A stretch of 64,000 bases of DNA, taken from Phyllobates terribilis. Its lineage: Eukaryota. Both the position numbers and the translations under genes were made by a program. The notes under the pieces are model-generated. The model saw nothing but the letters and a program-made list of their open reading frames with translations. It did no database searches and was not told where the DNA came from. Of the stretch, positions 202 to 58,457 are shown one piece after another. Positions within the stretch are counted from its first letter, which is position 1. Each line of letters opens with the position of its first letter. The DNA lies in the NCBI RefSeq assembly GCF_046119375.1, contig NW_027362769.1:410440001-410504000 (forward strand), written 5' to 3'.

Positions 202-3200
202 GCCTGTGAAAACTTTCAGTCTGTCAGGGTGGGGGACACTCTCACTGTAGGCCTCAAGGACACTGGGGCCGAACGAACCCTCATCCGACCCGAACTGGTG
301 TCCACTGAAGAGCTTATTCTGGGAAAGACCCTGACTGTCACCGGGATTGGGGGCGTCCGATGCCCCTTGCCCATTGGGGTGCGGGGAGTGGGGTGAAGGA
401 AGTGGGAGTATCCAAAAACCTACCTGCAAATGTTTTGTTGGGAACTGATTTGGGGAGGATGCTTGCTTATTATGTCCCTAACACCCCTCCCGATCTGATA
501 CGGTTGGTAAGGTTAATGCTAATAATGGGAATGTCAATGCTTTACCTGATGATGATGATGATGATGATGATGATGTATTGGAAGGTGCAGGAGAACTCAG
601 CCATGTCACGCTGCGGGGTGATGTTGCTGAGGATCCCCTAGCAGGAGCAAGTGTCAGTGCTAAGGGTAATGGGGAGAGGCACGAGGACCAAGAAGCAGGT
701 GGTGCTGTGCCAGTGACCAGTGTCACAACAGAAGGTGACCTGGCTGATAGTCGCTGCCCCATACGAAGCACTGTGCCTGAGGTAATGGAGGAGGATGGGG
801 AAATAGTACTCATAGCCGCACAGGCTGATGGGACGGTGTTATTCCCCGGGGAGACGGCCTATATATCCGCTGTTACCCGCAGTCAGAGTGCCCAGAACGC
901 AAGTAACGCCCTGCCTTCTGGACCCCCCTCGGACAGAGGAATAACAGGATCAGGTATGGACCCAGAGCCGGTTCCAGAGGGTCCCAGTGAGGACGTGGCC
1001 TTAACCTCACTTCTGGCTTCCTCCAGCCAGGAGTTTCAGGCAGCTCTTCACTCAGATGCTAGCCTGGAGACGTTAAGGAGCCTCGCTGAGAAACCCACCT
1101 CCGAGTCGGATAAGGAGAGGGTATTCTGGGACCAAGGGAGGTTGTACCGGGAGACAGTTCCCTGTACACCCCAACAGGAGTGGCTGAGGGAAAGACAGCT
1201 GGTCGTCCCCTACCAATTCAGGGATGAGTTGTTGCGGGTCGCCCATGAAATTCCACTCGCAGGACACTTGGGGGTCAGCAAAACCAAGGCCGAGCTGTCT
1301 CATCACTTTTATTGGCCCAAAATGAGGACAGATGTGGTGAACTACTGTCGCTCCTGTACCACGTGTCAAAGAGTGGGAAAGTCAGGGCCGGCCCCCAAAG
1401 CCCCCCTGATCTCTTTGCCAGTGATAGAGGAGCCTTTCCAGAGGATTGCTGTGGACATTGTGGGACCACTGGCCATGCCCAGCAGCTCTTCAAAACGTTT
1501 CATCCTTACCGTGGTAGACTATGCTACCCGGTATCCGGAGGCAGTAGCCCTGTCCTCAATTAGGGCGGATAAGGTGGCGGACACCCTCTTGGCCATCTTT
1601 TCGCGAGTAGGATTTCGCAGGGAGATGCTTACCAACCAGGGGACCCAGTTCATGTCACGCTTAATGGAGGCCCTATGTAAGAAAATGCAGGTGCAGCATT
1701 TGGTATCGAGTGCGTATCACCCCCAAACCAATGGTTTGAGTGAGCGATTCAACGGTACCCTCAAACAGATGTTAAAAATGCTGGTTGAGACCCAGGGTCG
1801 CGACTGGGAGCGTTACCTCCCACACCTGTTATTTGCTTACAGAGAGGTTCCACAGGCCTCGACGGGGTTCTCCCCCTTTGAGCTCCTGTATGGCAGGCGT
1901 GTCCGAGGACCCCTTGGGTTGATAAGGGAATTCTGGGAAGAAGAGCCGAGCTCCCCAGGAGTGTCCATCGTGGAGTATGTCATGCGCTTCCGTGACAAGA
2001 TGCAGACCTTGACGCAGTTGGTGCATGACAACATGGCGCAAGCCCAGGCTGACCAGAAGCATTGGTACGACCAGAACGCCCGAGACCGGACCTACCAGGT
2101 GGGTCAGAAGGTGTGGGTGCTGGTCCCCGTACCAAAGGACAAGCTTCAGGCGGCCTGGGAAGGCCCCTACGTCATTCACCAACAGCTCAACCCGGTCACC
2201 TACGTGATCACACTTGACCACGAGCGGGGTAGGCGGAAGGCGTTTCACGTTAATATGATGAAGGCTCGTCAAGAAGGTGGAACCTGCGTCCTACCGGTCT
2301 GCAACCTGCCCGAGGATGGGGAGGATGACCCCCCTCTTGGACATGCTCGCCCAAGCGAAGGCCAGCGGGTCCCTAGAGGATGTAGAGCTAAGCGACTTGC
2401 TATCCGCAGACCAGAGGTCTCAGATGCAAGCAGTGCTGAAACCCTTCCAAGCAGTGTTCACCAACCTGCCTGGCAGGACTGAAGTGGCGGTCCATGAAGT
2501 GGACACCGGGAATCATGCCCCACTCCGGCGGACAGCCTATCGAATCTCCGACGAGGTGCAGCATGTCATGCACCAGGAGGTCGAGGAAATGCTGCAGTTG
2601 GGGGTGATTAAGCGGTCCAAGAGCGCGTGGGCCTCACCTGTAGTCCTGGTGCCAAAGAAGGACCGGACCACCCGGTTCTGTGTGGACTACAGGGGGCCCA
2701 ACGCTATCACAGCCTCTGATGCGCAACCAATGCCACGCATTGAGGAGCTGCTGGAGCGGTTATCCAGTGCGAGCTATCTCTCCATTATGGATTTGAGTCG
2801 GGGATATTGGCAGATTCCCTTGAGCCCCAGGGCCCAGGAGAAGTCCGCCTTTATCACCCCCTTCGGATTGTATGAATCCACGGTCATGCCCTTCGGCATG
2901 AAAAATGCCCCTGCCACGTTCCAGCGAATGGTCAACCACCTGCTCCAGGGACAGGAGAGGTACGCAGTGGCGTACCTGGATGACATTGCCATCTTCAGTC
3001 CCACCTGGGAGGATCACCTCGAGCATCTGCAGCAGGTGCTCGGGCACATACACCAGGCGGGCTTGACCATCAAGCCGGGAAAGTGCCAGATGGGCATGAA
3101 CAAGGTCCACTACCTGGGGCACCGGGTAGGTTGGGGTACTCTGAAGCCAGAGCCTGGAAAGGTGGACGCTATCGTGTCCTGGCCCACCCCCAGGACCAAG

Positions 3201-3830
3201 AAGCGGGTGCAGTCCTTCTTGGGCACCGCAGGGTACTATAGATGCTTTGTACAGGACTATAGTAGCCTTGCGAAGCCCTTGACAGACCTCACCAGGAAGA
3301 GCCTACACCATTCTGTCAAGTGGATGGATGAATGCGAGGTGGCCTTTCGGGCTTTAAAGACTGCCCTGAGCAGCTCTCCTGTGCTAAAGGCGGTCGACGG
3401 CACACGGCCACTCTTAGTACTGACCGACGCCAGTGAGTTTGGCCTCGGTGCTGTACTCAGCCAGGTCGACTCGGGGAACCAAGAACACCCCGTGTTGTAC
3501 CTAAGCCGGAAACTGCTGCCGAGGGAAGTGGCCTATTCCACCATAGAGAAGGAGTGCCTGGCCATTGTATGGGCCCTCAACCACTTACAGCCTTACTTGT
3601 ACGGGCGCCCCTTCACTGTCGTGACTGACCACAACCCCCTGAGTTGGCTGCACACCATGTCAGGTGCCAATGGAAGGTTGTTACGCTGGAGCCTCACCCT
3701 CCAGCAGTAGCAGTACGACTTTACCGTTCAACACCGCAAAGGCAGCAAGCATGGCAATGCCGATGGGTTGTCCCGGCGAGGGGAGCCTCCAGACATCCGC
3801 TTGGAGGAGTACCAGAAGGTCCTACCTCCA
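202..3830 (+). pseudogene. Gmr1-like pol (PR-IN-RT-RH) with frameshifts
   Basis: PR split over two frames (46..396, 360..641). IN ORF 578..2482 has HHCC (GHLG, CRSCTTC), IAVDIVG, LTNQG (second catalytic D changed to N) and LSERFN. RT ORF 2277..3710 has YLDD and RNase H TDAS. Frame switches near 370, 490 and 2333; stop at 3708-3710. Confidence 0.9.
548..574 (+). repeat. (GAT)9 microsatellite encoding poly-Asp in the PR-IN linker frame
   Basis: Directly visible; in frame with ORF 578..2482. Confidence 0.9.
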
Positions 3831-6653: not shown

Positions 6654-9581
6654 TAGTGTTGAGCATTCTAATACTGAAATATTGGGTATCGACCGATATT
6701 CGCGGTATCTGAGTTCCGATACTGAGTTCTGATACTTTTAGAATATCGAATACCGGAATCGGAAGTTCCCATAATGCCTGCGCTCTGCAGTGTCTCTGAT
6801 GGATGACAAGCTGGATGGCAGCGCTCAGCTTACTGTACTTGCCATTTATTGTTAAAGGATTTATTAAAAAAAATAATAGTGCTTTCATGCACCGTCTCTT
6901 TAAAAAAGCCGGCCGGCAATTCAGCAGCGGCATACACCGGTACCCGACAATTTAGAACAGAAAGAATAGAGCATCACACATAGATTACATAGATAGAAAC
7001 ATGTCAGTCACATATATAAGAAGTACAGTGACAGTGTTGGTTACTGTACTTGTCATTTAGTGTTAAAATAAAGGATTTATTAAAAAAAAAATTGGCGTGG
7101 AGTTCCCCGTAATTTTAGTCTCTAGCGGAGGTTAAGCAGACGGCTGGGGCAGATGTTTGAAGCCTGGGAAGGGGGTAATACCCACGGAGCTTCCCAGGCT
7201 ACTAATATCAGCCCCCAGCTGAATACCTAGACCTTTACTAGCTATTAAAATGGGGACCCCCCCCCCCCAAAAATGACGTGGGGTACCCCCTATTTTAATA
7301 ACTAGCAAAGGCTAGGCAGACAGCTGGGGGCTGATATTAATAGCCCAGGAAGGGAGCCATGAATATTGGCCCCCTCCCAGGCTAGAAACACCAGCCGTCA
7401 GCCGGCCCAGAAATGGCGAATCCATAGGATGCGCCAATTCTGGCACTTAGCCTCGCTCTTCCCACTGCCCTGTAGCGGTGGCAGTGGGGTAATAGGGCTG
7501 GGGTTGATGTCAGCTTATAATGCCAGCTGACATCAAGCCCAGGTTAGTAATGGAGAGGCGTCTATAAGACACCCCCATTACTAACCCCATAGTCAAAGTT
7601 ACAAAAAACCACAAACACCCAGAATAAAGTCCTTTAATTGAAATAAAGACACAATTCTTTATTGTTCTAAATTAAACCATACTTACCATCACGCCCATTC
7701 CAGCTGAAGCCAACGATCTCCTGCAATAAAAGTAAAATAATAAAGCAACCTCATCTTTACCTTTCCATGGTTCCCAGGACGGCTCCAGCTCTGCTACATT
7801 CACATGACAGGCTGGATCGCAGCAGAACGCTGCCATCCAGCTTGCCATGCCGCAGACACTGAGAAGCGCAGGCATGCTTGCGCTCCTCAGTGTCTGGCTG
7901 TGACGGCATCCAGATGAGCCGAGTTCATGTCCAATGAACTCAGGTCACCTCATGCACGTCACTGACAGCGTGGGAAAATTCTCCTGCTCAAGCGCTGAGC
8001 ACAGGAGAATTCTCCCACGCTGTCAGTGACGTGCATGAGGTGAGCAGAGTTCATTGGACATGAGCTCACCTCATGCACGTCACTGACAGAGTGGGAAAAT
8101 TCTCCTGCGCTCAGTGCTTGAGCAGGAGAATTTTCCCACGCTGTCAGTGACGTGCATGAGGTGAGCTGAGTTCATTGTCGGCTCATCTGGATGCCGTCAC
8201 AGAGAGACACTGAGGAGCGCAAGCATGCCTGCGCTTCTCAGTGTCCGCGGGATGACAGGCTGGATGGCAGGGTTCTGCTGCGGTCCAGCCTGTCATCTCG
8301 ATGTAGCAGAGCTGAAGCCGTCCTGGGTATCATGGAAAGGTAAGGATGAGTTTGCTTTATGATTTTTCTTTTATTGCAGGAGATCGTTGGCTTCAGCTGG
8401 AATGGGCGCGATGGTAAGTAGAGTTTAATTTAGAACAATAAAGAATTGTGTGTTTATTTCAATTAAAGGACTTTATTCTGGGTGTTTGTGTTTTTTTGTA
8501 ACTTTGACTATGGGGTTAGTAATGGGGGTGTCTTATAGACGCCTCTCCATTACTAACCTGGGCTTGATGTCAGCTGGCATTATAAGCTGACATCAACCCC
8601 AACCCTATTACCCCACTGCCACCGCTACAGGGCAGTGGCAAGAGCGAGGCTAAGTGCCAGAATTGGCGCATCCTATGAATGCGCCATTTCTGGGGCGGCT
8701 GACGGCTGGTGTTGCTAGCCTAGGAGGGGGCCAATATTCATGGTACCCTTCCTGGGCTATTAATATCAGCCCCCAGCTGTCTGCCTAGCCTTTGCTAGCT
8801 ATTAAAATAGGGGGGACCCCACGTCATTTTTTGGGGGGTTCCCCATTTTAATAGCTAGTAAAGGCTAGGTATTCAGCTGGGGGCTGATATTAGTAGCCTG
8901 GGAAGCTCCGTGGGTATTACCCCCCTCCCAGGCTTCAAACATCTGCCCCAGCCGTCTGCTTAACCTCCGCTAGAGACTAAAATTATGGGGACCCCCACGC
9001 CAATTTTTTTTGGGGGGTCCCCCATTTTAATAGCTAGTAAAGGCTATGTATTCAGCTGGGGGCTGATATTAGTAGCCTGGGAAGCTCCGTGGGTATTACC
9101 CCCTTCCCAGGCTTCAAACATCTGCCCCAGCCGTCTGCTTAACCTCCGCTAGAGACTAAAATTACGGGGAACCCCACGCCAATTTTTTTTTTAATAAATC
9201 TTTTATTTTAACACTAAATGACAAGTACAGTAAGCAACACTGTCACTGTACTTCTTATATATGTGACTGACATGTTTCTATCTATCTAATCTATGTGTGA
9301 TGCTCTATTCTTTCTGTTCTAAATTGTCGGGTACCGGTGTATGCCGCTGATGAATTGCCGGCTTTTCGCATAATACATTCTACATTATTCTTAGTTGTTT
9401 TCCTTCATGTAGAATTAACCTACAAGGAAAGAAAGGGTTTATTTTTATTCCGATATTTGTGTCCCATTGACTTGCATTGGTTTCCGGTATCGGAATCGGC
9501 GATATCCGATATTTTTTGGGTATCGGTCCGATCCAATCCGATCCGATATTTCCTGATATCGGAAGGTATCACTCAACACTA
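6654..9581. mobile_element. Non-autonomous hAT-type DNA transposon with a ~2.4-kb internal palindrome (fold-back)
   Basis: Terminal inverted repeats TAGTGTTGAG / CTCAACACTA; near-matching 8-bp flanks ATCAATGA / ATCATAGA; arms ~6903-7945 and 8164-9366 are reverse complements; no coding capacity. Confidence 0.75.
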
Positions 9582-9689: not shown

Positions 9690-12600
9690 CTGTAAAACAA
9701 GCAGAAAGTTCCTTTTTATTTATTATCTATAATATACTGGGAGATGTTTCCCTCTGTCTGAAGCCTCTATAGACTGCGCAGTCTGGCTCCAGACAGAAGA
9801 CCGCACGGAGCCGTTACAGGTAAGAGGAGTGTATGGCACTGGGGATCGTGGTAGGTGTAGACACTGAATGCATACCGCGATCTCCGGTGCCATACTTACA
9901 TACCTGACCGGGAGGAGCGTTGCCGCGGCGCCTCTCTTCTCGCCTGAGACCGGGGCAGGAGTGAGGCGTCAGAATCGGCGCATGCACATAGCGCTATCCA
10001 GCGCCATTTTACTGTAGACACATTTGCAGTGTGTCTTCAGCAAAAAGGCGCCAGACAGCGCGGTATGGGCATGCGCGTACTCCGGCGCCACACTCCTCCC
10101 CCGGCCTCCAGCAGAACAGGACACCGCAACAGCTTGAGCACAGGGAAGAAAGGTGAGTATAAGTGTATATTTTTTTGTATGTGTGCAGTGTGAAAGGGAT
10201 GAGGGGTGTCATACATACCAGGATTGGGGGTGAGGGGTACCATACATACAAGGATGAGGGATGAGGGGTGCCATGCATACCAGGATTGGGGATGAGGGGT
10301 GCCATGCATACCAGAATTGGGGTTGAGGGGTGCCATGTGTACCAGGATTGGGGATGAGGGGGCCATGCATACTAGGATGGGGATGAGGTGTGCCATGCAT
10401 ACCAGGATTGGGGGTGAAGGGTGCCATGCATACCAGGATAGGGATGAGGGGTGCCATGCCTACCTGGATAGGATGGGGGCACAGGATGGGGGGCAGCACA
10501 TACCAGCATGGGAGACCATTTATCAATAAATATGCTCACCACCCGGGCATAGAATGGGTTCAGTAGCTAGTATCTTATAGTTCTCTATCTTCAGACTGTC
10601 CGTTATGTAACCAGACTGGTAAAACCTGATATTTCAGGAGAACCTGATGACTATTTTGGTTTTGCCATCTTTAATAACTCATCTATGAGCACAACACATC
10701 GCTTCTTTATTGGTTGTAGAGATTTAAACGTCTACTTCTTGTGTATAACGGTTGTAATATCGTCCTTCCCGGACTGTCCTATCTGAACTTCTCTCGCAGA
10801 CTCATCAGTGGGTCGTAGCTACCAGATATGAGACGATCTAATGATGAGTAATAAAGAGCGTTTTGTTTCATACCTGAAAGCTGAAGAAAATAATCCAGGA
10901 TCTTTGATTTTGCTGATTGTCCTAAGTTATCAGTCTTGTCTTCATATGAAATTAGAATCAGGTCACTGGCGTAATTGGCAATTGTCGGCTGCGAGAGAAG
11001 GATCTGGCTCTTCTTCCCATCACCGGAGTCCTCCAGATCATCAATTATCACAATTGTGTTCTTCTTCCCTGCAAATCAGTAGCTGGATTAGTGAGCTCCT
11101 CCTGAAGATCCATGTCTCCTCTACTGAAGATCCATGTCTCCTCTACTGAAGATCCATGTCTCCTCTACTGAAGATCCATGTCTCCTCTACTTTGGTTACA
11201 CATTAATGGCATAGTTCTATAGAGGACACGTGCCTCCAGATCAGACATCCGTGATGGCCTCCAAAATAGATGGTTGATCCCCCAACAATCATGTCTATGG
11301 GTAAAATATAACCTGTCCCTGCCATCTTCTGTAGGGAAACTCTTAATGGAAACATGTCGGCTACAAAAACACGAGCTACTTGTAAGTTTTTTTCTTTTTT
11401 CGCAGGTATATGGTGCTTAAATCATGTTCGGCTGGTTAATTGGAAGGGCGGCTACAGGGAGAAAATAAAGTTTTATCCTTCCTGCAACCTCTAGCTTCCA
11501 GATATAGGGATGGTAGAGGTAGCTGTAACATTCACAGCTCACTACACAGTGATCACTCCCTCTGCACATTGACTGACAGTCCGCTCTGCAGACACACACT
11601 GCTGCTGTTACATCTCCCTGCCCGTCCCTGATGTCAGAAAGTGATCGGCTGCAGGGTGATTATAACTTCATTTTCTCCCTGTAGCCGCTCTTCAGTTAAA
11701 CCAGACTTACATGATTTAAAAGTGATTTATCTGCAGATTATCCCCTATATCTGCGTATAAATTCTTGTTTTCTTTAATCCTTACACTATAAACTTATTGT
11801 AACATACCTGGCGGCGTCCTTGCATAGTGGTCCATCTCCCACTGTGCAAGAGCGCGCACTTGATCTCCTGTCCAGAATGTCTCTCTGGCTTTCCTCCTTG
11901 CTGTCTGTTTGTCTGTTTTGGCTGCATAGGGCGACGCCCGCTGAACTTCCTGTTTCTTGTACCTGCTGCGGACACGCCCCTGTTGCACCTTCAGCCTATT
12001 GCTGTCCATCTTTGGGTATTTATACCACCTTCTTCCTCAAGATGGCGCCTGAGCATAGTGTTTCTTTCAGTGTGTGCTTGCACTCTGAAGGTGCCAGGTC
12101 CCGTTCTGTGTTCTCTTGTCTGCCTATCCTGGAGGCTGTATTTCCAGACCTGTCTGAACACGCTCCTAGCCTGTTCCTCCTGCCTTCTAGGGGCCGATTA
12201 CCTAGACCTGTTCCTGTATCTTGTCTGACCTGTCTGAACACGCTCCTAGCCTGTTCCTCTCGCCTTCTAGGGGCTGATTACCTAGACCCGCTCCTGTATC
12301 TTGTCTGTCCTGTCTGAACACGCTCCTTGCCTGTTCGTCCTGCCTCTCTGGGGGCCGTATTCCCAGACCCGCTCCTGTATCCCGCTGCAGTGTCGGTCTC
12401 CTCCGTACACTCAGTTCCAGTCTGAACTCTCTCCTATCCTTTACCTGTTTTGCCTCTATGTCCGTTCCCTTCCTTTTTCTGCAGAGTCTGAACTCGTACC
12501 TAACTCCTGCTTGTTGTCTCTGTACTCCCGTTTGTGAGTTTGTGGTCCACTCGCTACTTCACTGCAAGTACCCTGTGGGTGTCTGGCTCTGCCTTTCCCT

Positions 12601-15600
12601 TCCTGTCTGTTCCGTGTGAACAGAGGCCTGTCCCCCCTACTCAGCCTAGCCTGCTCTGACTCCTTTGCTCACCGCTCCGGCGGTTCTAGCCTGCTCTGAC
12701 TCCTTTGCTCACCGCTCCGGCGGTTCTAGTCTGCTCTGACTCCTTTGCTTACCGCTCCGGCGGTTCTAGCCTGCTCTGACTCCTTGCTCACTGCTCCGGC
12801 AGTCCTGTCCTGCCCTGCTTCTGCCCGCTGCTCCGGCAGTCCTGTCCTGCCCTGCTTCTGCCCGCTGCTCCGGCAGTCCTGTCCTGCCCTGCTTCTGCCC
12901 GCTGCTCCGGCAGTCCTGTCCTGCCCTGCTTCTGCCCGCTGCTCCGGCAGTCCTGTCCTGCCCTGCTTCTGCCCGCTGCTCCGGCAGTCCTGTCCTGCCC
13001 TGCTTCTGCCCGCTGCTCCGGCAGTCCTGTCCTGCCCTGCTTCTGCCCGCTGCTCCGGCAGTCCTGTCCTGCCCTGCTTCTGCCCGCTGCTCCGGCAGTC
13101 CTGTCCTGCCCTGCTTGTGCTCGCTGCTCCTGCAGCCCTGTCCTGCTCTGTTCTTGCCCACCGCTTCGGGCGTTCCCTCTCTGCTGTGGTTGTCTACCGC
13201 ATCTGCGGTTCTGTGACCCAGTCTGTACTGGGTCTTAACCTTTCTGTGCTCCAGCCCGTCCTTTCGGCCAGTACCTCCCTGCCTGCATACTCGCCTGTAT
13301 CCACCCATCTGCATACCTGCCGTGTTTGCTTATATCCACCAGTCTGTGCCTGCCTAACCTGCCTGTTCCTGAGTCCCAGTGTGTACTGGGTCCTATCCCG
13401 CCTGTGTTCCTACCTGCTAGTGCCTCCCTGTCTGCACTCTAGCTGCGCTTGCCTTTACCCGCCTGCCTGCATACCAGTCGTGCCTGCCTATACCCTCCAG
13501 TCTGTGCGCCAGCCTAACCAGCCTGATCCAGTAATCCCTGTGTGGGTCAACCCCCGTGTCCGGAGTTTGACCTGGAGTAGCACCTGGTCCCTCTGCCCGG
13601 TTTCTCCCTGGTGCACTGGCGTCGTATGCCGTCGTGCCATCTTGGTCGGATCGGCCAGATACTTAGTCACGCCCCTCCAGGCACTCTCCGGTTCATGGTC
13701 CAGTGGAATCACTACAATCACACGCACACGCCGCTCAGCCCGGGCGTGTGCATAACAGCATGCTCAGGCCATGGTTCCCGTTGAGCCCCACGGCCTTCGC
13801 TCTCTGAGAAGTTTTCCAGCGACTACATGCATTAAAATAAATAAATAAACATTTTTTTTTTCCTTTAGCTGAGTTCCAGGCGAATTACACACCCGTCCAG
13901 ATGGATCTATCTGCTCTCGTTCCTGCGGATCCGCTACGTTATTATGGGGATCCAAGACAAAGTCGTGCATTTGTGGAGCAATGCATGCTACACTTCAAGT
14001 TCTACCCTCTATGTTTTCCCACCGATCGGGTTAAGGTGGCATTCATTATGTCTTACCTGGCGGGTGATGCCTTGGAATGGATCAACCCCCTATATGAAAC
14101 ACAGGATCCGATCCTCCTGGACCTAATGGCCTTCCTGGTGGCCTTTCTAATGGTCTTCGATGATCCTAACCCGGAGGCTCCTGCTGAAGCTTCACTTCCC
14201 AATATCCCGGAGCAGCCCCAATGGGTAATGTGTGTGGGTAGCGCAATAGTCCTCCAGCCCAATGAGACTACTGCCCACCCAGAATCCTCACAGGGTGACT
14301 ACGCTTTCCGGAATACTTCTCCCAACCTCAAGAGGCAGTCCAGACGTGCTAGACGTAGAGGCAAGCCGTCACGCCAGGGTCTGTCCTCCCTGAGACCTCC
14401 TGACCCCAACCTTGAAGTCCCTACTGAAGCTTCATCTCCCTGTATCCCGGAGAAGCCCCAACGGGTAATGTGCGTGGGTAGTGCACCAGTTCTCCTGCCC
14501 GAAGAGACTTCTGCCCATCCAGACTCCACACAGGAGAACTTCCTGCACCCGGCATCAGATGCTTCACCCACTTTAACCGGTGTGCATGTCCAAGGATGCT
14601 CCAAAGCTGTGGTTACCTCAGAGTCTGTGCACCTCTACTACCTGGCGGAGGACCCCCTGTTGCCTCCTGAATCCTCCGGGATACCACTCGATGACAAATG
14701 GAGAGAGACTTCTCTACACCCAGTACTCGATACTTTGTCCGCTTCGTCCTGTGAGCCTGACAATGGGTACCCCAAAGTGGTAGTTACCCCCGAGTCTCTA
14801 CACCCCTCCGACCAAGCGGAGGACCTCCAGTTGTCTCCTGGACCCTTCGGGGTGCTACCTGGTAGCGAAAGGACAGAGACTCTCCTATACTCTGTACCTG
14901 ATACCTCGCTCGCTTCGTCCAGTGAGTCCAACCTAGTGTACTCCGAAGCAGAGGTTACTCCTGAGTCTCTACACCCCTCCGACCAGGCGGAGGACCTCCA
15001 GTTGTCTACAGAACCCTTCGGGGTGCTACCTGGTAGCGAAAGGACAGAGACTCTCCTATACTCTGTACCTGATACCTCGCTCGCTTCGTCCACTGAGTCC
15101 AACCTAGTGTACTCCGAAGCAGTGGTTACTCCCGAGTCTCTACACCCCTCTGACCAGGCGGAGGACCTCCAGTTGTCTCCAGAACCCTTCGGGGTGCCAC
15201 CTGGTGGTGAATGGACAGAGACTTTCCTATATCCTGGATCTGATACCTCGCTTGCTTCTTCCAGTGAGTCCGACCTAGTGTACTCTGAAGCAGAGGTTAC
15301 CCGTGAGTCTCTACACCCCTCTGACCAGGTGGAGGACCTCCAGTTGTCTCCAGAACCCTTCGGGGTGCCACCTGGTGGTGAATGGACAGAGACTTTCCTA
15401 TACTCGGTACCCGATACCTCGCCTGCTTCGTCCAGTGAGTCCGACCTAGTGTACTCTGAAGCAGATGTTTTCTCTGAGCCTCGGCACTCTTCTGACCCGG
15501 CGGAGGACCTCCAGTTGTTTCCTGAATCCTCCGGGGTACCACCAGATAACAAAGAGACAGTGACTTTTCCTTATTATGTACCTGATAACCCATCTATTTC

Positions 15601-18600
15601 TTCCTGTGAGCTTGACAAGATGTACCTCGAAGCAGAGATTACCCCCAAGTCTCTGTCCCCCTCCAACCCGGTGGAGGACTTCCAGTTGTCTCCTGTACCC
15701 TCTGGGGTGCCACCTGAAAATATGTGGAGAGAGACTTCCTTGTGTGCTGTTCCTGGTACTCCACCCGTTTCGTCTGTTGCTAAGGGTGGCTGGATGGGAG
15801 GTAGCATCCTAGCTAACCAGAGGAGACCAGTTTTTCCGGTGGACAGTGGAAGTGATCTCTTCGAAGTGAAGAATTGGCCCTCGAATTCCCTGCGGAAGAT
15901 TCTGGCAGGCCTGAAGAAGAGGGGGCGTAAGGGGGGGGGTACTGTAACATACCTGGCGGCGTCCTTGCATAGTGGTCCATCTCCCACTGTGCAAGAGCGC
16001 GCACTTGATCTCCTGTCCAGAATGTCTCTCTGGCTTTCCTCCTTGCTGTCTGTTTGTCTGTTTTGGCTGCATAGGGCGACGCCCGCTGAACTTCCTGTTT
16101 CTTGTACCTGTTGCGGACACGCCCCTGTTGCACCTTCAGCCTATTGCTGTCCATCTTTGGGTATTTATACCACCTTCTTCCTCAAGATGGCGCCTGAGCA
16201 TAGTGTTTCTTTCAGTGTGTGCTTGCACTCTGAAGGTGCCAGGTCCCGTTCTGTGTTCTCTTGTCTGCCTATCCTGGAGGCTGTATTTCCAGACCTGTCT
16301 GAACACGCTCCTAGCCTGTTCCTCCTGCCTTCTAGGGGCCGATTACCTAGACCTGTTCCTGTATCTTGTCTGACCTGTCTGAACACGCTCCTAGCCTGTT
16401 CCTCTCGCCTTCTAGGGGCTGATTACCTAGACCCGCTCCTGTATCTTGTCTGTCCTGTCTGAACACGCTCCTTGCCTGTTCGTCCTGCCTCTCTGGGGGC
16501 CGTATTCCCAGACCCGCTCCTGTATCCCGCTGCAGTGTCGGTCTCCTCCGTACACTCAGTTCCAGTCTGAACTCTCTCCTATCCTTTAACTGTTTTGCCT
16601 CTATGTCCGTTCCCTTCCTTTTTCTGCAGAGTCTGAACTCGTACCTAACTCCTGCTTGTTGTCTCTGTACTCCCGTTTGTGAGTTTGTGGTCCACTCGCT
16701 ACTTCACTGCAAGTACCCTGTGGGTGTCTGGCTCTGCCTTTCCCTTCCTGTCTGTTCCGTGTGAACAGAGGCCTGTCCCCCCTACTCAGCCTAGCCTGCT
16801 CTGACTCCTTTGCTCACCGCTCCGGCGGTTCTAGCCTGCTCTGACTCCTTTGCTCACCGCTCCGGCGGTTCTAGTCTGCTCTGACTCCTTTGCTTACCGC
16901 TCCGGCGGTTCTAGCCTGCTCTGACTCCTTGCTCACTGCTCCGGCAGTCCTGTCCTGCCCTGCTTCTGCCCGCTGCTCCAGCAGTCCTGTCCTGCCCTGC
17001 TTCTGCCCGCTGCTCCGGCAGTCCTGTCCTGCCCTGCTTCTGCCCGCTGCTCCGGCAGTCCTGTCCTGCCCTGCTTCTGCCCGCTGCTCCGGCAGTCCTG
17101 TCCTGCCCTGCTTCTGCCCGCTGCTCCGGCAGTCCTGTCCTGCCCTGCTTCTGCCCGCTGCTCCGGCAGTCCTGTCCTGCCCTGCTTCTGCCCGCTGCTC
17201 CGGCAGTCCTGTCCTGCCCTGCTTCTGCCCGCTGCTCCGGCAGTCCTGTCCTGCCCTGCTTCTGCCCGCTGCTCCGGCAGTCCTGTCCTGCCCTGCTTGT
17301 GCTCGCTGCTCCTGCAGCCCTGTCCTGCTCTGTTCTTGCCCACCGCTTCGGGCGTTCCCTCTCTGCTGTGGTTGTCTACCGCATCTGCGGTTCTGTGACC
17401 CAGTCTGTACTGGGTCTTAACCTTTCTGTGCTCCAGCCCGTCCTTTCGGCCAGTACCTCCCTGCCTGCATACTCGCCTGTATCCACCCATCTGCATACCT
17501 GCCGTGTTTGCTTATATCCACCAGTCTGTGCCTGCCTAACCTGCCTGTTCCTGAGTCCCAGTGTGTACTGGGTCCTATCCCGCCTGTGTTCCTACCTGCT
17601 AGTGCCTCCCTGTCTGCACTCTAGCTGCGCTTGCCTTTACCCGCCTGCCTGCATACCAGTCGTGCCTGCCTATACCCTCCAGTCTGTGCGCCAGCCTAAC
17701 CAGCCTGATCCAGTAATCCCTGTGTGGGTCAACCCCCGTGTCCGGAGTTTGACCTGGAGTAGCACCTGGTCCCTCTGCCCGGTTTCTCCCTGGTGCACTG
17801 GCGTCGTATGCCGTCGTGCCATCTTGGTCGGATCGGCCAGATACTTAGTCACGCCCCTCCAGGCACTCTCCGGTTCATGGTCCAGTGGAATCACTACAAT
17901 CACACGCACACGCCGCTCAGCCCGGGCGTGTGCATAACACTTATTCTTAGCTCTACATCTAATAATAATTATAAAACTTAACCTAACCCTAAAACTAAAC
18001 CCTAACAGAGATGAACAAATCTCCAGAAATTAGTTTTGGGCAGATTCGCTAGAATCGTCGGGCAGATTCGTTCTAATGGGCCCCTCATTACCTTTTATTA
18101 TTCTCTGAGGTCTCTATAGAACTCAAAGCCCATGAAACTGAGGGCGGAGAAGGGGTGAACAGTAATAAAAGATTACACTGACCAGTTGAAAACCTGCCGC
18201 CCACCTCTCCTGCCACCGCAGCGCACCACTTTGTCCTCGGCTTTGGACTGTGTAATTGGTCTTCAGTATTCTGGTACTAAAAGGTCAATAACGTGCAGAC
18301 ATGTCGCTCAACATGAAATGAGGTCTAGTCGGTGCCAGAAGACTGAAGAATGATCACCTTTAAAGAGCTAGAAAGCAAGGATCGGGCGGGGATCTGCGGC
18401 AGCAGGACAGGTGAGGATAAGATTTATTTATACGAATCCTGAAAAATTTAAATTCTGGCAAATTCCAAATTTTTAAGGAATTTGTAACTAGTGTGATAAT
18501 GAATTTGATTCCCTCTTCTCTACATGCAGTATAATCCTGCCCTTAATCCTAATCCTAACAATGTATCTAACCCTAACACTAAATCAGATTCCAACCCCAA

Positions 18601-31004: not shown

Positions 31005-34000
31005 ATGACCCTGTAGGGCTCCATGTAGATGACGTTGTGTGCTCAATGGATGTAGGAGGATGATTAGATAAACTGAGGAGATCACGATTCAATGAGTCAC
31101 AACCCTAAGGATGACCTCGTTCTGACAAGTGGCCGTAAGGACAGACAAGGCTCAATGTCATGAGATCGTGTCATGGATGAAACCTGGTGACCAGCAGTGT
31201 CGATATCTTACGTGACCCACCTTTAGTCTGCTCCATGATCTCCTTTAACTGGTTCAGTTTCTGGTACATTACACCCCCCATATTTTATAGCGCTTTAATC
31301 CCCAGATCCACTCAACTCTGTGCTCGACTCAAGACCAACGTCCTTACAGAAGTTCTGTCCTAGAAGACTGGGGATCTTGATGTTCTGAAAGATAAATTTG
31401 TAATATTTGTCTTACTAAATATGATATTAGAGACAAATTATTTTCCAAAGGTGATGATGAAGCTCCTGGGCCCCAGGGAAGAACTTATACAGTAATAGGG
31501 TCCACACCTACTATGTGATCTTTTCATCCCTACGGCGCTTCAAGTACCAGGACCTTCATGCACAATCAGGGCCCCAACTACTATGTGGCAGACAGTGTCT
31601 TCTTATGTGGCAGAGGGGCCCTATTGGGCATTAGGGCCCGAGTGCTATATCTTGTGATATGACATATATTTTATATTAGAATTTCAACATCTTCAATTGT
31701 AATTTGGAAAAAAGAATTGAGAGAAGCCATAATCAATATTCATCAATAATCTATCATCATCACCAATAAATCAATCTTCACCATCAATAATCATTCTTCA
31801 TCACCAATAAATCAATCGTCCTGGTTATGAGAGTCTCTATGTTATCTGAGATCCTGCCATCATTGAACACATTGAATTGAGAATGCTTCTGGCCTCTTAC
31901 TGCATCGGTGGTGCTGTCTTCTCTTTTCCTGGAGGTCTTCAGGTTCCCGGGCGGTTCCTGTGTCTTCTCCCTCCTTTCTTGCCGATTATGTCGCTTATTT
32001 TCCAGCACCAACCCAAGAAGAAAGTTTATAAGGCCCCTTGTGCCTGCATCGTTACCCCAGGCCTCCCGTCCTTCACCTCCTATCTCTCCCTTAACTTTCC
32101 CGGATCTGAGAAGACGCCTCCGCCTTAGCTCCTGCTGATTGACCTTAGGCCCCAATTTATGTTTCGAATATGATTTGCATTCTCAGGTCAAGGTCCACGT
32201 GGGGCGTTCCTCCAGCTCCTTCACAAACAAAGCTGATAAAACCATATAGACTTTACTCACAGGTTTAAGAGGTAAAATAAAAAATGTAACAAAGCTTAAA
32301 GAACATCAGTCCTTACGGGACGAGACGTCGTGTGTGCACCGGAGTGATACCGAGGATTCTCATCGCTACATGCAATGTATCATGCACATTTTGACTGGTT
32401 TGTAATTCATGGAGGAGTCATCTCTTGGCTCCATGTCACATCGTTCATGTGGTTAAAGTTAATAATTGAGAGTATAAAGTGCTCAAAAGTCATTCTTGCA
32501 TTTTCAGGATGGTGTTATCTCTTCCTTTTAGGGCTACGGTCATCCCCAAGTTGATTCCAAGGACAACACAGCTTGATGTTACACGCACGCCGCTAGGTTC
32601 AGATAGGGACGAGACGGGTTTCATGAATTCTTTGGAATCCTGGGCGAACCGTTACTCAAGGCAACCATAGGCTGCAGCTTCTCTCAGGCACACGATAGAT
32701 TCAGTTGCTGACCAGACACATCTGACAAGAGTCTTTTTCAACAGTTTTACAGTGGAATTTAATTTGAAGCACGGCCAGTGCAATTCAGGGATATTACAGC
32801 AACCGGCTCTAGTAACAATACGTAGTTTCTTCACAAGGCACAGTATTACAGTCTCTTCAGTAGTATAATTCAGCATAGATTAGATCTCTTAGCTGCACAC
32901 TTCTATGCTGTAGCGTCGGCGTCTCTGCCTCCTGCTAGGCAGGGACGCTGTTCCCCTCACCTCTCTGCTCCGTGCCCGGCGGCTTCCTCCCGCTCTGCTT
33001 GCAGCGCCCGCTCTCCCCCGGTCACTGTGCTTAGGGCGCGCGCGCGCGCGCTCCCCCTCTCTTAAAGGGGCCGCATGCGCCGCCCTAAGGAGTCCCCGGC
33101 CAATGGCCGGAGGATCCCTCCATATATAAGGCACCTCCTCCAAAATGGAGGTGCCCGAGCAATGTTGTTGCACTGTTCATTACTCTGCTTCAGCCCTCAG
33201 GTCCCGTTTCCAGTTACCTGCCAGTTACCTGCCAGTTTCCTGCCAGTTTGCTGTCTGATTCCTGCCTGTTATCCGCTTACCTGCTTGCTAGCCTTAGGTC
33301 CGACGGTCTGCCTTCCGACACCAGTCAGTCTGTCTATGGACCAGCTTGTCCGCTCACCTGGGAGCGCTCATCTGCTACCTGCCTGTTAGCCTACCTGGAG
33401 GCTCCGTCGTCACGTGCTGTGACCACCTACCAGTCCAGAGACTCTTGCCCGCTCACCTGGGAGCGCTCATCTACTAGCCTACCTGGAGGCTCCGCCGTCA
33501 CGTGCTGTGACCACCTGCCAGTCCAGAGACTCTTGCCCGCTCACCTGGGAGTGCTCATCTACTAGCCTACCTGGAGGCTCCGCCGTCACGTGCTGTGACC
33601 ATCTGCCTGTCCAGAGACTCTCGCCTGCTCACCTGGGAGCACACATCTGCTACTCACCTGCTAGCCTACCTGGAGGCTCCGCTGTCACGTGCTGTGACCA
33701 CCTGCCTGTCCAGAGACTCTCGCCTGCTCACCTGGGAGCACACATCTGCTACTCGCCTGCTAGCCTACCTGGAGGCTCCGCCGTCACGTGCTGTGACCAC
33801 CTGCCTGTCCAGAGACTCTCGCCTGCTCACCTGGGAGCACACATCTGCTACTCGCCTGCTAGCCTATCTGGAGGCTCAGCCGTCACAGGTCGTACCTGCC
33901 CTTTACCCAGAGACTGCCCCGGTCACTTGCCGTGACCACCTGCTCGTTACCCAGAGACTGTCCCGGTCACTTGCCGTGACCACCTGCCCGTTTTCTAGAG

Positions 34001-34221
34001 ACTGTCCCGGTCACTTGCTGTGACCTCCTGCCCGTTTACCCAGAGACTGTCCCGATCACTTGCCGTGACCACCTGCCCGTTTACCCAGAGACTGCCCCGA
34101 TCACTTGCTGTGACTACCTGCCCATCTTCCCTGGGTGCCACCCGCTTCCTTACAAGGACCGCCCCCTTGTATAGTTGCTCAGAGGTTCCGCCTCCCAGAC
34201 CCGTTACAGTTTGCTCGGGCC

Positions 34222-35172
34222 ATGGAACCCGGTGGCACCCAAGCTCCCTCGCTCTCGGACCTTTGTCATGAACTGTCCCGACAGAGGTCCCAACAGGAGT
34301 CCATCCTGGGTCACCTGCGGAATGTCAATTCTCGCCTGGACACATTGACTGCTCCGCTAGCAACCACCGCTAGTGTCATGACTCGCAGCCTGGCTGCTCC
34401 GCTGTCCGCCAATACCATAGTATCCTGCTCCAGAACCCGGCTTTCTGCATCTCCTCGCTTCGGAGGCGACTCCGCTCAAGCTCGGGGCTTCATTAACCAG
34501 TGCACCCTGCACTTTGAACTCCTGCCCCACCAGTTTAATTCCGACCGGGCCAAGGTAGCCTTCATCATGTCCCATCTCACGGGGGAGGCACTGGCTTGGC
34601 TAAATCCTCTATGGGAGAGAGGAGATCCCCTGGTGTCCGACCTGCCAGCCTTTCTCACGGCTTTCCGGAAGGTCTTCGACGAACCCGGACGGAAGACCTC
34701 ATCAGCCTCATCTCTGCTACGCCTCCGCCAAGGGAGTCTCACCGTGGGCCAATATGCCATACGGTTCCGTACCCTTGCTTCGGAGCTGGCCTGGGATAAC
34801 AACGCCCTGGTGTCCGTCTTCTGGGAGGGTCTGTCCGGCCGTATTAAAGATGAACTCGCCGGTCGGGACATTCCTACCACTCTCGACGACTTAATTACAC
34901 TTGCCACCCGGATTGACATCCGGTTCCAGGAGCGCGCCAGGGAGGTCACCCGTGAGAGGAGGTTTCCACGTCTAGCCCCTACCTTCCAGAGACCCGTCAC
35001 TCCCTCTGTTACTCCCCAGGCACACTCACCTGAGCCTATGCAGGTCGACCAGACCAAGATGGTCAAGACCCGTCAAGACTTACGTCGTGCCGAGGGGAGC
35101 TGTTCCTACTGTGGCAGTAAGGAGCACCGGATCCGTTCCTGCCCAGAGAGGTCGGGAAATGCCTGTGTCTAG
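34222..35172 (+). CDS. Sushi-type Gag (coiled-coil, capsid, CCHC knuckle CSYCGSKEHRIRSC)
   Basis: ATG 34222 directly after the priming site; Retrotrans_gag-type motifs; open to TAG 35172. Confidence 0.92.
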   Translation: MEPGGTQAPSLSDLCHELSRQRSQQESILGHLRNVNSRLDTLTAPLATTASVMTRSLAAPLSANTIVSCSRTRLSASPRFGGDSAQARGFINQCTLHFELLPHQFNSDRAKVAFIMSHLTGEALAWLNPLWERGDPLVSDLPAFLTAFRKVFDEPGRKTSSASSLLRLRQGSLTVGQYAIRFRTLASELAWDNNALVSVFWEGLSGRIKDELAGRDIPTTLDDLITLATRIDIRFQERAREVTRERRFPRLAPTFQRPVTPSVTPQAHSPEPMQVDQTKMVKTRQDLRRAEGSCSYCGSKEHRIRSCPERSGNACV

Positions 35173-37009
35173 GATCGCTCAGAGAGGTCGCCCTAGACAA
35201 AAGTAAACCCTCTCCATCCCTGATGCTGTCTGTTTCTATCTTCTGCGGAGAGAACCGCTATTTTGAACAGGCTCAACTTGACTCAGGAGCTGCTGGAAAT
35301 CTCATCTCTCAATCCCTGGTAGAAAAATACCGCATTCCCACCAAACCTCTGGCCGTACCTTTATCTGTCGCCGCCGTGGATGGGGGCCTCTTACCACATC
35401 CCATCCAACTCATCACCGAATCTCTGACTCTACAGGTGGGAATGCTGCATTCTGAGAGCATCTCCTTTCATGTTCTGCCTGGACTCTCTCACGCACTATT
35501 GCTTGGCCTGCCTTGGCTCCAGAAACATGTGTGACACCCCAGGGGTCTGGTTGCCACAGTAATAGAGATATTATGTCTGAGAGCAAGTGGGAGGTTTCTC
35601 TGGTCAGGATCCCTAAGCATGCAACACGGTCCGCCCAGACCTGGGAGGGGAGGAATCTGCCCTTTTAAACTGGGTCTGGGGCGGGATTAGAGCAGTCAGA
35701 GTCTGGAGAGGGAAAGTGAGATCAGGAGCTCTGTAGGAGCAGTAGCAGAAGTCCAGGGGCTGGAGCTGAGCAGAGTTCGCCCTGGACGAAGATACTAAAG
35801 CCGGACACAGGAGTCCGAGGCTGTGGGGACTGATATACACCCAGCAGCAGAGACCAGCCGGCAGGGGATTCCAGGTCCTCTGGCCATAGAAGCCCGGAGG
35901 CTCAGTCACAGAGAAGGGACCAGCGCCGCCATCCAGGAGCGGAGGCTAACAGAAGGCCCCAAGTCACCAGCCATACGGGTGAGCACCACACGGTATACTC
36001 AGGGACGTGGGCTACTTGTAACCGCTGACAGCAAGGTAGCCAGAAAGAGTGCCGATAAACGGGGAGGCCTACAACTCCACCTGGCCAGGGGAACTCCTGC
36101 TTGCTCGCAGACTGACCAGGCCCCTTATACTAGCCAGTACTCCCGGGAGGGTCTGCCTTGTACTATCAGTAAAGACCCTGAACTGCACCACCCGTCTCTG
36201 TGATTCCTTGCCGCACCAGCACCATTAGTACTGGGACGCTCACACCATCACTCCCATCATCTTCCACCTTAGCTGCCCTGAGGCAATACTCCTCCCGTGG
36301 GGAGTCATCCCATACTCAGCTGCGCAAACAACATCAGCCTCAGCGGTCTGCAGCACAGCGGCGTTCCCCACTGACCGCAATCCACGGGTGGTGTAGTCGG
36401 ACACTTATTACCATACAAATAGACTGCCACTGGTTTGACCACCCTGGGCACGGACCGGGTCACCGCCACGGAGGACTACAACCCCCAGCGATCCGGCTCC
36501 GGGTATCCCCCTGCACAGCACAGGCTCAGGGGGCGCGTCAACTTTGGCGTAGTCGGCAGGATTTCGTGCCCGCAACCACCGGGTACTGCGTGCCTGAAAA
36601 AGACTTTTGAACTTACCTGTGGTGAAGTTTCCCGCCGTCCGGAGTCGTTTCCCGCCATCCGGAGTCGTTTCCCGCCGTCCGGAGTCGTTTCCCGCCATCA
36701 GACGCCATCTTGGACCGTTTCCCGCCGTCTTCTGCCTTCTTCCCGCCATCCGCAGCTGCTTCCCGCCTTCGCACGCCATCTTCGGGACGCCGCACAGGAA
36801 GAAGAGGGGTGTGGACGCCGAAAGCGCGCGAGATCCGAAGCTCCGCCGCACGCTCTGACGCTGCGCAAGGTCCTGGAAGGGAGGAAGAGCGACGCTGACG
36901 TCATCGGAGCGCGACGCCAGGTCCTCAACCCCGACGATCGACTGCGGAGCCGCGGCCTACGGAAGAAGAGCATCGCAAGGTAGGCCACGGTCCACTAGGG
37001 GGGAGGAGG

Positions 37010-37992
37010 ATGCCGGACACCGAGGGGAGCTCCACTGCCACAGCCACCGCCAGCGCAACCGCTGCAACAGTCATGCCATTCACCATGCCCTATATCCCGG
37101 GGGCAGCCTGGCTACCCCAGTACTCAGGGGAGTCACATACCCTAAATGACTTTAGAGAAAGACTGGATAGCCTCTTCCAGGTGTACCCCCTCACAGAAGA
37201 GCAAAAAGTGAGCATCCTGGTGGCCCAATTAATCGGGGCAGCCCAAAGGGAGGTAAAGTCCTGGCCACCTGGGAGGAAGAGGACTGTCAGAGACATACTA
37301 ACCCGGCTGAAAGACACATTTGACACCCGCACCTCAGCCGAAATAAAACTAAGATTTTATGGGTGCAAACAACGGGCACATGAGAGTATAAGAGACTATG
37401 CGCTAAACCTACAAGAGGCCCTGAAAGCCATTAAGCAGGCAGACCCTGACAGCGTGGGAAATGAAGATAAGCTGTTGACTGAACAATTTATGGAGGGTCT
37501 ACTGTGCAATGCCCACCGAACACATTTGCGGGCAATGGCCTTACAGGACCCTGACCTGGACTTTGCACAGTTCAAGGACAGAGCCATCCGGGTGCTCCGA
37601 GAACCGGCACCAGGTGGCGCTGTGACCCACAGGCGCCCTGCTATCACTTACCACCAGGAGACGGCGCCCTTGTCTGCAGGGCCTGTGGGAGCTGATGCGC
37701 AGGCTTTAAACAGTGACCCGGCTACAGACCTGCACCATCAGGTCCAAGAGCTGACTAAGAGCGTTGCCGCGCTAACCAGAACTGTGCAGTCTTTACAGGT
37801 CTCTTCTCCAGGAAAGATCCAGCTGGCCTCCGGACCGGAGGATGTCCCGTGGCGCCGACTGAGGAGGACCCACCGGCCAGAGGAAGACCCAGCGACAGAT
37901 ACAACGAGGAAGGACGACCCATCTGCCGCCGCTGCAATCAACCTGGACATGTGGCAAGGTACTGTCATTTAAACGGGCACAACCTGGGGTAG
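37010..37992 (+). pseudogene. Gag of the nested element (1-bp frameshift before the CCHC knuckle)
   Basis: ORF 37010..37972; CRRCNQPGHVARYC lies in another frame from ~37870. Confidence 0.85.
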
Positions 37993-40900: not shown

Positions 40901-41987
40901 CAGATCTGGCTATGTCTACGCCCTCACAATCGTAGATCATTACTCCCGGTTCCTGGTGGTGGTCCCGGTCAAGGACTTAACGGCTCAAACAGCAGCTAGA
41001 GCCTTCCAGCAGCACTTCTGCCATCCACATGGTTACCCGGACCAAGTGTTGACAGACCAAGGACCAGCCTTCGAAGCGGAGGTCTTCCAGGAGTTCTGCA
41101 ACCTGTATGGCTGCAAGAAGATAAGAACAACGCCCTATCACCCTCAAACCAATGGACTCTGCGAGAAGATGAACCAGGTGGTGATAGATCTGCTAAAAAC
41201 ACTGCCCCTGGAAGAACGCAGTCTGTGGCCTGAGAAACTGTCCGATCTGGTGGACCTGTATAACCACATCCCTGTAGGTTCCACCAACTGTACCCCGGCT
41301 TACCTAATGAGAGCAAGACCTGGTAAGCTGCCTATTGACCTGGATATGGGAGTCCTGACGCCTGAGGACACCTCGCCAGAGGCAGACTGGGATACAGAAC
41401 GGCAGCAGCAGTATCGGAAAGTACAGGAGAGCGTCGAGCGAAGTCTGTCTCAAGCTAGAGAAAGGCAAGAGACTGCCATCAAGCCATGAGAACCCAAAAA
41501 TCTGCGTAATCAGTAAGGATGGAGGAGAAACCACAGCCATTGTCTCCAGAGACCACCTGAAGAAGTGTCCCGAGCAGCTGCAAAGCCCTGAAGAAGATCA
41601 AGAAAATCCTCAACCCGCAGAGGAAAGGGAAGAAATGATCAGTACCGTACTCGGAGACTTCCCCCGGTCTTGGACACAAGTAACGGCGCTGTCGTAGTAC
41701 CCGTCCTCACCTTTCTCCAGCCAGCCCCGCAAGTACCTACAGAGGAACCGGTAGAGCTGGAAGAGCAGCCGGCCCAAGAGGCAGAAGAGTCCACACCAGC
41801 AGTACAGGAGGATCAACCCTCTGCTAGTAGTGAGCCTGCTGTGCCCCTAGTGAGCCAAAGAGTGCGCAGAAAGCTGCCCAGCTTACCCATAACACCTCCT
41901 ACACCCTGTAGTGCAGAACCAGTTAGTGAGCTCCGTAGGTCCACTAGAGTCACTAGAGGTCAGATGCCCGCTCGCTGGAGAATCTAA
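37968..41987 (+). pseudogene. Pol of the nested element (PR-RT-RH-IN); premature TGA at 38967-69 and deletion in the IN C-terminus
   Basis: LLDTGS, YLDD, TDAS, HHCC, ALDHV / LTDQG / LCEKMN; ORFs 38067.. and 39069.. are in the same frame. Confidence 0.92.
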
Positions 41988-50410: not shown

Positions 50411-50639
50411 ACATTGACCATTGCATATCTTGAACATGCCAGCATGGGAGACTAGATTACATTTTTACATTACATTTCCCAGGCTGGGAGGACTCTATAA
50501 ATAAGGTGATGACAAATGGTGAGGGCTCAGAGCATGATAGAGTGACTTGAATCCAAAAAGGAGGTAGTCCTGACTTACAGCCACCTAGAGAGGTGAAGGG
50601 AACTCTAGGAGAGGTTCTTCCTCTTATTCCAGGGGTTAA

Positions 50640-53850: not shown

Positions 53851-54688
53851 TCACAAGAGATGAGATTGAAACATTTAACAGGATTATTTATAGGGGGATA
53901 AATGGTGAAAAATACAGGTGGGGGGGCATAAAAAAGAACAGCAAAATAAATATTACATAAACCCAGAAAATATGTTATTCTCTTAAAGGTACAGAATGTC
54001 CTTTGCAGCAGGCCTGGATGTTAAGGGTGACACTTTCCCTTTAAGTGAAAGAAAACACAATTCTAACTAATCACACTTAACCAAGAAATGGCTGCGGCAA
54101 TGCGACTAATACAGTCCAACGTTGGGGCCTGGTTGCCGCTGATTTTGGCACACTTACAGGAACCATTGACGTACCATGACGATGTGTCACGTGCCAGCTG
54201 CAGACAGTGATTGGCCAGTGAACAGATTAAGCAGGGATTGTCCAGGAGTGGACAAACCCTTTAAATATAAACAGCAAAATACCTAGTAACCTGCCAAATT
54301 TAATCAACAGGTTATTTTGTTTGAAGCATAAACTAGAAAATAAAAAAGTGCCTCTTTTCTACATTTGCTACATTTAAAAATGATAGAAATTACATAGTAA
54401 TTTTTTTTGCTATTTTGTATTTTGCTATTTTGCTTCCTCCCCGCCCAGGAGATGTGGTATGATCAGACCATGTTCCGTACACGGTCAGACACAGCCATTA
54501 CACAGGGGAACATGTATAAGATTATCTCAGCACAGGAACATTTTATTTAAATACATCCAATTGTGGAACTTATTATTATTCCAATATCTATTGATTAAAA
54601 TTTACTTGCATTCATGGGAAAACCCCTTTAATCCAGGGGATATTTTGAAGTTCTTAGGTGCGACATGCCTTGGTGTGAGAGAAATGAG

Positions 54689-58387: not shown

Positions 58388-58457
58388 TGTTTGAACTCGT
58401 TATCAGTATAAAAGACACCTGTCCGTAACCTCAAACAGTCGCACTCCAAACTCCACT

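Follow-up and report, generated by a model that had tools for sequence, protein, structure and literature searches.

A 64,000-nt stretch of the genome of Phyllobates terribilis (NCBI RefSeq assembly GCF_046119375.1, contig NW_027362769.1, positions 410,440,001 to 410,504,000; hereafter the window) carries, at 11798-17939, a 6.1-kb long terminal repeat (LTR) retrotransposon from a mobile family that encodes no enzymes. Its single open reading frame (ORF), which begins with half a capsid and continues into acidic repeats, is kept open by selection that operates on the lineages which transpose and brings the host no benefit. The signal for the open frame is clear, but hardly anything indicates that a new protein is under constraint. 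The explanation we tentatively prefer, with somewhat less than an even chance of being right, is that of a non-autonomous Tf1/sushi family with a predicted need for translation itself in cis, which would favor survival or routing of its RNA.

The element is not a lone locus. A 30-nt junction sequence gave 4,497 exact matches in the 10.57 Gb of genome searched, whereas a control gave 0, and the window copy is therefore one of at least 4,497. Both LTRs were resolved in 14 of 20 whole copies fetched; each of the 14 has its own 5-bp target-site duplication (TSD), and their LTR pairs differ at 0-24 positions per ~2 kb, with a median divergence of 0.19% when the window copy is included. With its LTRs, primer-binding site (PBS), polypurine tract (PPT), TSDs, many independent insertions, and lack of enzymes, the family is a non-autonomous LTR retrotransposon. 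The first-pass annotation of the window had described a young sushi element without pol whose LTRs differ at about three positions. Between the two LTRs there are indeed 2 substitutions and a difference of one 37-nt tandem unit, and mobility and the absence of protease (PR), reverse transcriptase (RT), and integrase (IN) were borne out, but a probable remnant of pol, the chromodomain end at aa 619-680, survives in frame. The intact protein of 853 aa is likewise real only in part: ORF 13901-16462 has 853 codons, but the last 172 aa are LTR read-through and other copies end elsewhere. ORF length varies among copies (e.g., 624, 681, 690, 699, 756, 818, and 853 aa), because subfamilies differ in unit number and LTR variant and the protein may end at any point between the PPT and aa 853. 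An older subfamily, whose first 705 nt are 8.5-18% away from the window copy across 26 copies, has an identical plan.

Most copies retain an open frame from ATG to PPT, contrary to the mostly broken frames that would have refuted the first-pass annotation. The frame is open in 25/29 and 28/30 copies chosen by similarity score, in 17/19 selected because their aa 1-100 are identical (one more, a 20th, is interrupted), and in 26/30 taken in position order, first listed on contig C1, a sample that skipped one copy already sampled and one tandem neighbor; among older-subfamily loci it is open in 10/30. Variants private to single copies tell how copies change after insertion: in 60 young copies there were 165 nonsynonymous (N) and 73 synonymous (S) changes and 6 stops, and these tallies match the neutral expectation (68-72% N, 25-29% S, and ~3% stops), so that single copies decay neutrally. 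Variants common to at least four copies have passed through active sources and hence mark transposing lineages. None of 249 such variants is a stop, as opposed to 15 of 588 rarer ones (Fisher p=0.008, a value that treats variants as independent, with a shared class that may include recurrent CpG changes, and that rests on roughly 135 of the 4,497 or more copies); left out of this test were four duplicates, tandem or segmental, as well as two repeated loci, and one tally also omits the set with identical aa 1-100. In a simulation, the probability of no stop in 200 substitutions was 0.002. Among the sampled copies, a few stops are common to 2 copies and none occurs in more than 2 independent ones. 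Indels behave similarly. Private frame switches number 13 in 43 copies, at differing places where they could be located, whereas the indels shared before the PPT (unit number, 6 nt, and 195 nt) are all in frame and shared frameshifts are plentiful in the G-run of the PPT and in U3.

A neutral explanation of the open frame is conceivable but improbable. On that view the frame is a relic: the in-frame deletion and a unit length that is a multiple of three arose by chance, and too little time has since elapsed for decay. A 171-nt unit of matching composition is open in 36% of shuffles, changes in unit number by their nature cannot shift the frame, N/S lies close to the neutral value, and aa 1-235 taken alone have accumulated 57 fixed changes without a stop with a probability of 0.16, all of which speaks for a relic. 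The contrast in stops between shared and rarer variants does not fit, however, nor does the absence of any shared frameshift before the PPT, given that private ones are common and shared ones abundant just beyond; moreover, the edge units of the repeat array have diverged by ~30% without a stop or an indel.

The layout of the window copy, read on the forward strand, is as follows.

11793-11797: left TSD, CTTAT, 5 bp, identical on both flanks
11798-13757, + strand: 5′ LTR, 1960 bp, with 80-, 40-, and 37-nt tandem arrays
12017-12024, + strand: TATA-like box, 30 nt upstream of the self-primer
12047-12056, + strand: self-primer and probable transcript 5′ end, a 10-nt complement of the PBS, the longest in the LTR
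12534-12539, + strand: candidate splice donor, the sole consensus-like donor in the leader, present in 21/22 elements
13760-13769, + strand: self-priming PBS, complementary to 12047-12056
13771-13848, + strand: upstream ORF, the ancestral Gag ATG now followed by a frame of 25 codons, directly after the PBS as in the sushi Gag of the window
13852-13868, + strand: candidate splice acceptor, a T-tract of variable length followed by AG
13901-16462, + strand: single ORF, 853 aa in the window copy
13925-14170, + strand: capsid N-terminal domain (NTD), aa 9-90, recognized by DUF4939, AlphaFold, Foldseek, and conserved Gag positions
14171-14605, + strand: linker, with the decayed start of the capsid C-terminal domain (CTD), an older duplication of ~44 aa, and an Arg-rich patch at aa 144-158
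14606-15754, + strand: seven acidic Ser/Pro/Glu units of 57 aa (171 nt), the last running into the tail
15755-15940, + strand: probable decayed chromodomain end of integrase in the ancestral pol frame, from a shuffle-tested alignment
15913-15939, + strand: PPT, whose G-run differs in length among copies
15943-17939, + strand: 3′ LTR, 1997 bp, of which the first ~520 nt encode aa 682-853
17940-17944: right TSD, CTTAT, 5 bp

The LTRs end in TG..CA and enclose an internal region of 2.2 kb. The signals needed in cis are retained: the 9-mer core of the self-primer is present upstream of the PBS in 22/22 elements, and an autonomous-type sushi element elsewhere in the window (32909-47513) has an identical arrangement of TATA box, self-primer, and PBS. 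Priming by a PBS complementary to the 5′ end of the RNA is the mechanism of Tf1-type elements (PMC4600332), and it is from this complementarity that transcription would be placed near 12047. RNA folding of the PBS region is unexceptional (z -1.25). The acceptor-like AG context is kept in 29/30, 27/28, and 20/20 loci as well as in 22/22 older-subfamily loci. Among sequencing runs that hold the sequence, none is recorded as RNA, and four are guessed to be. When contigs from three of these four and from one other run, all under a single organism label (organism A), were aligned to the stretch from LTR to linker of one copy, neither candidate splice site had a joint; such contigs cannot show expression. 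An upstream ATG brought into frame by the candidate splice was considered and dropped, since it is not conserved; the donor distance is 76 nt in most sets but 75 nt in 16/28 eight-unit copies. An AATAAA cluster at 13836-13849 was similarly rejected as a conserved poly(A) signal because the older subfamily lacks it.

The ORF starts with what the first-pass annotation had recognized as the N-terminal half of a sushi-type capsid, and this was substantiated: aa 13-104 are identical at 46/92 positions (50%, E 3e-29) to the Gag at 34222, and Pfam assigns aa 11-85 to DUF4939. AlphaFold predicts with high confidence that aa 11-90 form a helical domain (predicted local distance difference test, pLDDT, 93-98) and gives low confidence to aa 91-210 (pLDDT 44-63). 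The top Foldseek rows for the lobe are dArc, Ty1 capsid, and Arc lobes, with probabilities of up to 0.99 but every E value above 0.1, and a sequence search against solved structures gave Ty3 Gag alone, at E 0.24. The lobe retains 20/20 positions conserved across 46 Gags, whose own mean is 17.3, while the adjoining CTD remnant retains 2/4 (p=0.02); the 46 Gags were selected by similarity to the ORF protein, and the 20/20 figure is biased accordingly. The start of the CTD, directly after the lobe, is recognizable but decayed, and an older duplication within the ORF, about aa 88-131 and 168-211, can be made out from the translation.

From aa 236 follow seven units at an exact spacing of 57 aa (Tandem Repeats Finder: period 171, 6.5 copies). 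As had been described, they are homogeneous in the middle and diverged at the edges: inner units 2-5 are pairwise 11-22 nt apart, and pairs with an edge unit ~41-55 nt. Variable columns among the window units fall on the three codon positions as 30/38/32. When the part after Gag was shuffled 2000 times, it contained 21 stops on average and 6 at minimum. The units are without a homolog in the searches made: the best 150 matches of a search against 1.84 billion proteins fall on aa 2-209, essentially the lobe, the best match in the Atlas (0.78) is at chance level, and Pfam is likewise empty. The 57-aa unit shows no significant similarity to the SH3 region of integrase, considered as its possible source; 556/3000 protein and 348/1000 DNA shuffles aligned as well. 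By contrast, aa 619-680 align with the window pol at its chromodomain end with a protein score of 72, where shuffles reach 28.7±5.3, with 0/3000 protein and 3/1000 DNA shuffles as good. In this remnant the conserved Trp is gone and the frame is kept; the Pfam Chromo profile does not match the ORF, nor do the profiles for PR, RT, RNase H, and IN families. The 3′ LTR starts at codon 681, so that aa 682-853 are encoded by the LTR, and the window pol frame likewise runs through the PPT into U3, which makes this read-through ancestral. Because both the lobe and the probable chromodomain end lie in frame, the ORF can be considered the product of a deletion from gag to pol with new repeats inside. 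A large internal deletion would have fused the N-terminal capsid half to the chromodomain end, and the tandem units would then have expanded between them.

Judging from these features, the element is a derivative of the Tf1/sushi chromoviruses (Ty3/Gypsy, Metaviridae), with which it shares the self-priming PBS, the sushi-type capsid, TG..CA LTRs, a 5-bp TSD, and probably a chromodomain end, here decayed, in a frame passing the PPT into U3. It differs from them in its ~2-kb LTRs, in the reduction of the Gag ATG to an upstream ORF, and in lacking PR, RT, RNase H, IN, the capsid CTD, and the zinc knuckle; an autonomous Tf1/sushi element was rejected for want of a Pfam match to any of the four enzymes and in view of the 2.2-kb internal region. 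The TR-GAG elements of plants are likewise non-autonomous but active LTR elements whose one ORF derives from Gag, but they encode a Gag precursor and are smaller than 4 kb (PMC4350172), whereas the present family is 6.1 kb long, resides in an animal, and encodes half a capsid of nearly unconstrained sequence; its half capsid and length place it outside TR-GAG as defined there. RLG_Quinta of wheat resembles it as a non-autonomous chromovirus derivative that encodes Gag plus a domain of unknown function and is cross-mobilized by a partner; its clear Gag, however, is thought to provide particles, and its PBS is common with the helper (PMC11302176), while the protein studied here is without CTD and nucleocapsid and a helper sharing its PBS was not found by narrow pattern searches. 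An animal family of this plan was absent from the literature searched, most subscription papers and repeat databases being outside that search.

The encoded amino acids seem to matter much less than the frame. The first-pass annotation had envisaged that a new protein evolved here, and an N/S near 1, which would speak against constraint, is largely what was found outside the lobe. With the private baseline set to 1, shared variants have an N/S of 0.70 in the lobe (p=0.42) and 0.65 in the units (p=0.14), as opposed to 0.84 for the tail and 1.06 for the linker; none of these ratios is significant, and constraint on the amino acids is weak. Fixed changes between old and young subfamilies fall on the 20 conserved lobe positions in 0/10 cases (P=0.05), but two core lobe positions vary within lineages, one lineage of ~10 copies has four lobe residues changed, and some lineages have altered Arg residues in the basic patch.

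In the preferred scheme of a need for translation in cis, Gag, RT, and IN would come in trans from an autonomous sushi helper, and the genomic RNA would have to be translated up to the 3′ LTR. Full translation might let the RNA escape premature-stop decay, remain in the translating pool packaged by helper Gag, or both, with the encoded sequence being of little weight beyond the folded capsid lobe at its start. A benefit in cis is the most likely one because a trans-acting product among thousands of copies would let broken ones spread. Premature stops with long 3′ ends trigger RNA decay. Defective-interfering RNAs of coronaviruses are an analogous case: they depend on a helper and keep an ORF open whose sequence is seemingly dispensable, a likeness drawn from the title of van der Most 1995 (PMC189091), which reportedly dealt with a selected open frame in defective coronavirus RNAs; these are unrelated replicons, and the analogy is functional only. 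A further precedent is that Ty1 and Ty3 package RNA drawn from the translated pool (PMC4974528, PMC3945221). Several points, in addition to the limits of the stop test given above, weigh against a need for translation. According to the same papers, mini-Ty1 elements that encode no product still transpose, and Ty1 Gag does not prefer RNA in cis, which shows that translation is not generally required. The main ATG is preceded by a strong upstream ATG and its 25-codon ORF, which means that reinitiation or splicing would be needed, and the candidate splice would excise the PBS and thereby break selection in cis at the RNA level. Finally, the retention of 20/20 conserved positions in the lobe as opposed to 2/4 in the CTD remnant points to some function of the protein.

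Such a function could be that of a cis-acting tether or passenger, which we regard as possible but rather unlikely. The lobe would dock on helper Gag during synthesis and give its own RNA preferential packaging, while either the Arg-rich patch or the basic end at the C terminus would grip that RNA and the acidic disordered units would serve as a spacer in which composition counts over sequence. Disordered acidic spacers tolerate an N/S near 1. The confident fold of the lobe, its full set of core positions, and the absence of fixed changes on them would all be accounted for, and RTL8, which consists only of a capsid NTD, enters PEG10 particles (PMC11684626). On the other hand, the lobe ratio of 0.70 is not significant, one lineage of ~10 copies has four lobe changes, two core positions vary in lineages, the set of conserved positions was drawn from Gags chosen by similarity, Arg residues of the patch have changed in some lineages, and NTD-only RTL8 reduces particle yield, which would be harmful to a parasite. 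In favor of a tether, the sole capsid-less derivative found has spread by segmental duplication and not by transposition. This derivative, with a common stop at 11 loci, was considered as a cheater lineage and rejected, since the 10 loci checked share an identical flank and so represent one insertion; it is a stop-bearing deletion copy (L171-L180) within satellite, duplicated segmentally to at least 10 places. The fuller proposal that a parasitic element evolved a cis-acting half-capsid, whose nascent lobe docks on helper particles and pulls its own RNA in, seems to us somewhat less likely again.

The first-pass annotation had further noted that the truncation resembles that of mammalian LDOC1 and RTL8, and the resemblance holds: these SIRH/RTL/Mart proteins too retain nothing of a sushi-type Gag but its N-terminal capsid lobe (PMC11684626, PMC11011659). 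From this and from the antagonism of RTL8 toward PEG10 particles (PMC11684626), one could suppose an RTL8- or Fv1-like restriction factor, as the first-pass annotation had also suggested, or a host-domesticated gene, either of them damping the helper, but we consider this very improbable. LDOC1 and RTL8 are fixed, immobile host genes, whereas the present family is mobile, decays neutrally, and carries a long acidic tail; young copies in their thousands, with private variants that are neutral, are not an immobile locus under purifying selection for the host, and membership in the SIRH/RTL domesticated genes was rejected on that ground. The family needs a helper, and selection falls on its transposing lineages, which profit from that helper, so neither restriction nor domestication is to be expected of dispersed, decaying copies.

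Non-autonomous LTR elements have been thought to need their ends only, as mini-Ty1 does (PMC4974528, PMC3945221), or to supply a whole Gag, as do TR-GAG (PMC4350172) and Quinta (PMC11302176). The present family instead maintains a frame of 400-730 codons with almost no amino-acid constraint and half a capsid in thousands of copies, which implies either that translation itself is selected for the mobilization of LTR RNA or that the half-capsid serves the parasite rather than the host. It may also illustrate a route by which NTD-only Gag genes arise before domestication; if the tether were real, it would make the element a selfish forerunner, mobile to this day, of the RTL8/LDOC1 architecture and a new way to cheat a helper. 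Natural intact and broken copies make both readings testable from RNA, ribosome, and particle data with the elements unaltered.

Some further observations concern the family. Copies occur in runs spaced ~4 kb (G000:C1:86491982-86504325 and other places), which fits tandem elements with common LTRs. An intermediate subfamily (L187, L204, and related loci) has four capsid-lobe changes and an in-frame 195-nt deletion that removed most of the chromodomain remnant but kept the basic end. One copy (L065) is broken within its units by unrelated sequence, into which the frame continues. Of the words sampled from 13760-14590, 64-77% occur in sequencing runs under three organism labels. Four narrow pattern searches for other interiors, aimed at a helper with matching PBS or PPT, returned family members only, and a search for the DDPN-type Gag motif found five loci.

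The sushi element at 32909-47513 is a chromovirus of full-length type (TSD TATGC, self-priming PBS, Gag at 34222, and pol pieces with a chromodomain), into which a PNMA-type gypsy element has nested (ORFs 37010-41489), breaking it up; with a capsid lobe 50% identical to that of the ORF, it represents a possible helper type. Elsewhere in the window, Gypsy pol pieces at 785-3710 have an integrase-like ORF upstream of an RT-like ORF, an order that we take to be Gmr1-like. An element at 57905-59636, presumably Tc1-like, has an open transposase of 339 aa and 128-nt terminal inverted repeats. Nested long inverted repeats at 6912-9362, with arms of 661 and 324 nt that are 95-98% identical, are fold-back-like, and tandem arrays of 31 nt (47938-50413) and 32 nt (54686-56851) yield long spurious ORFs.

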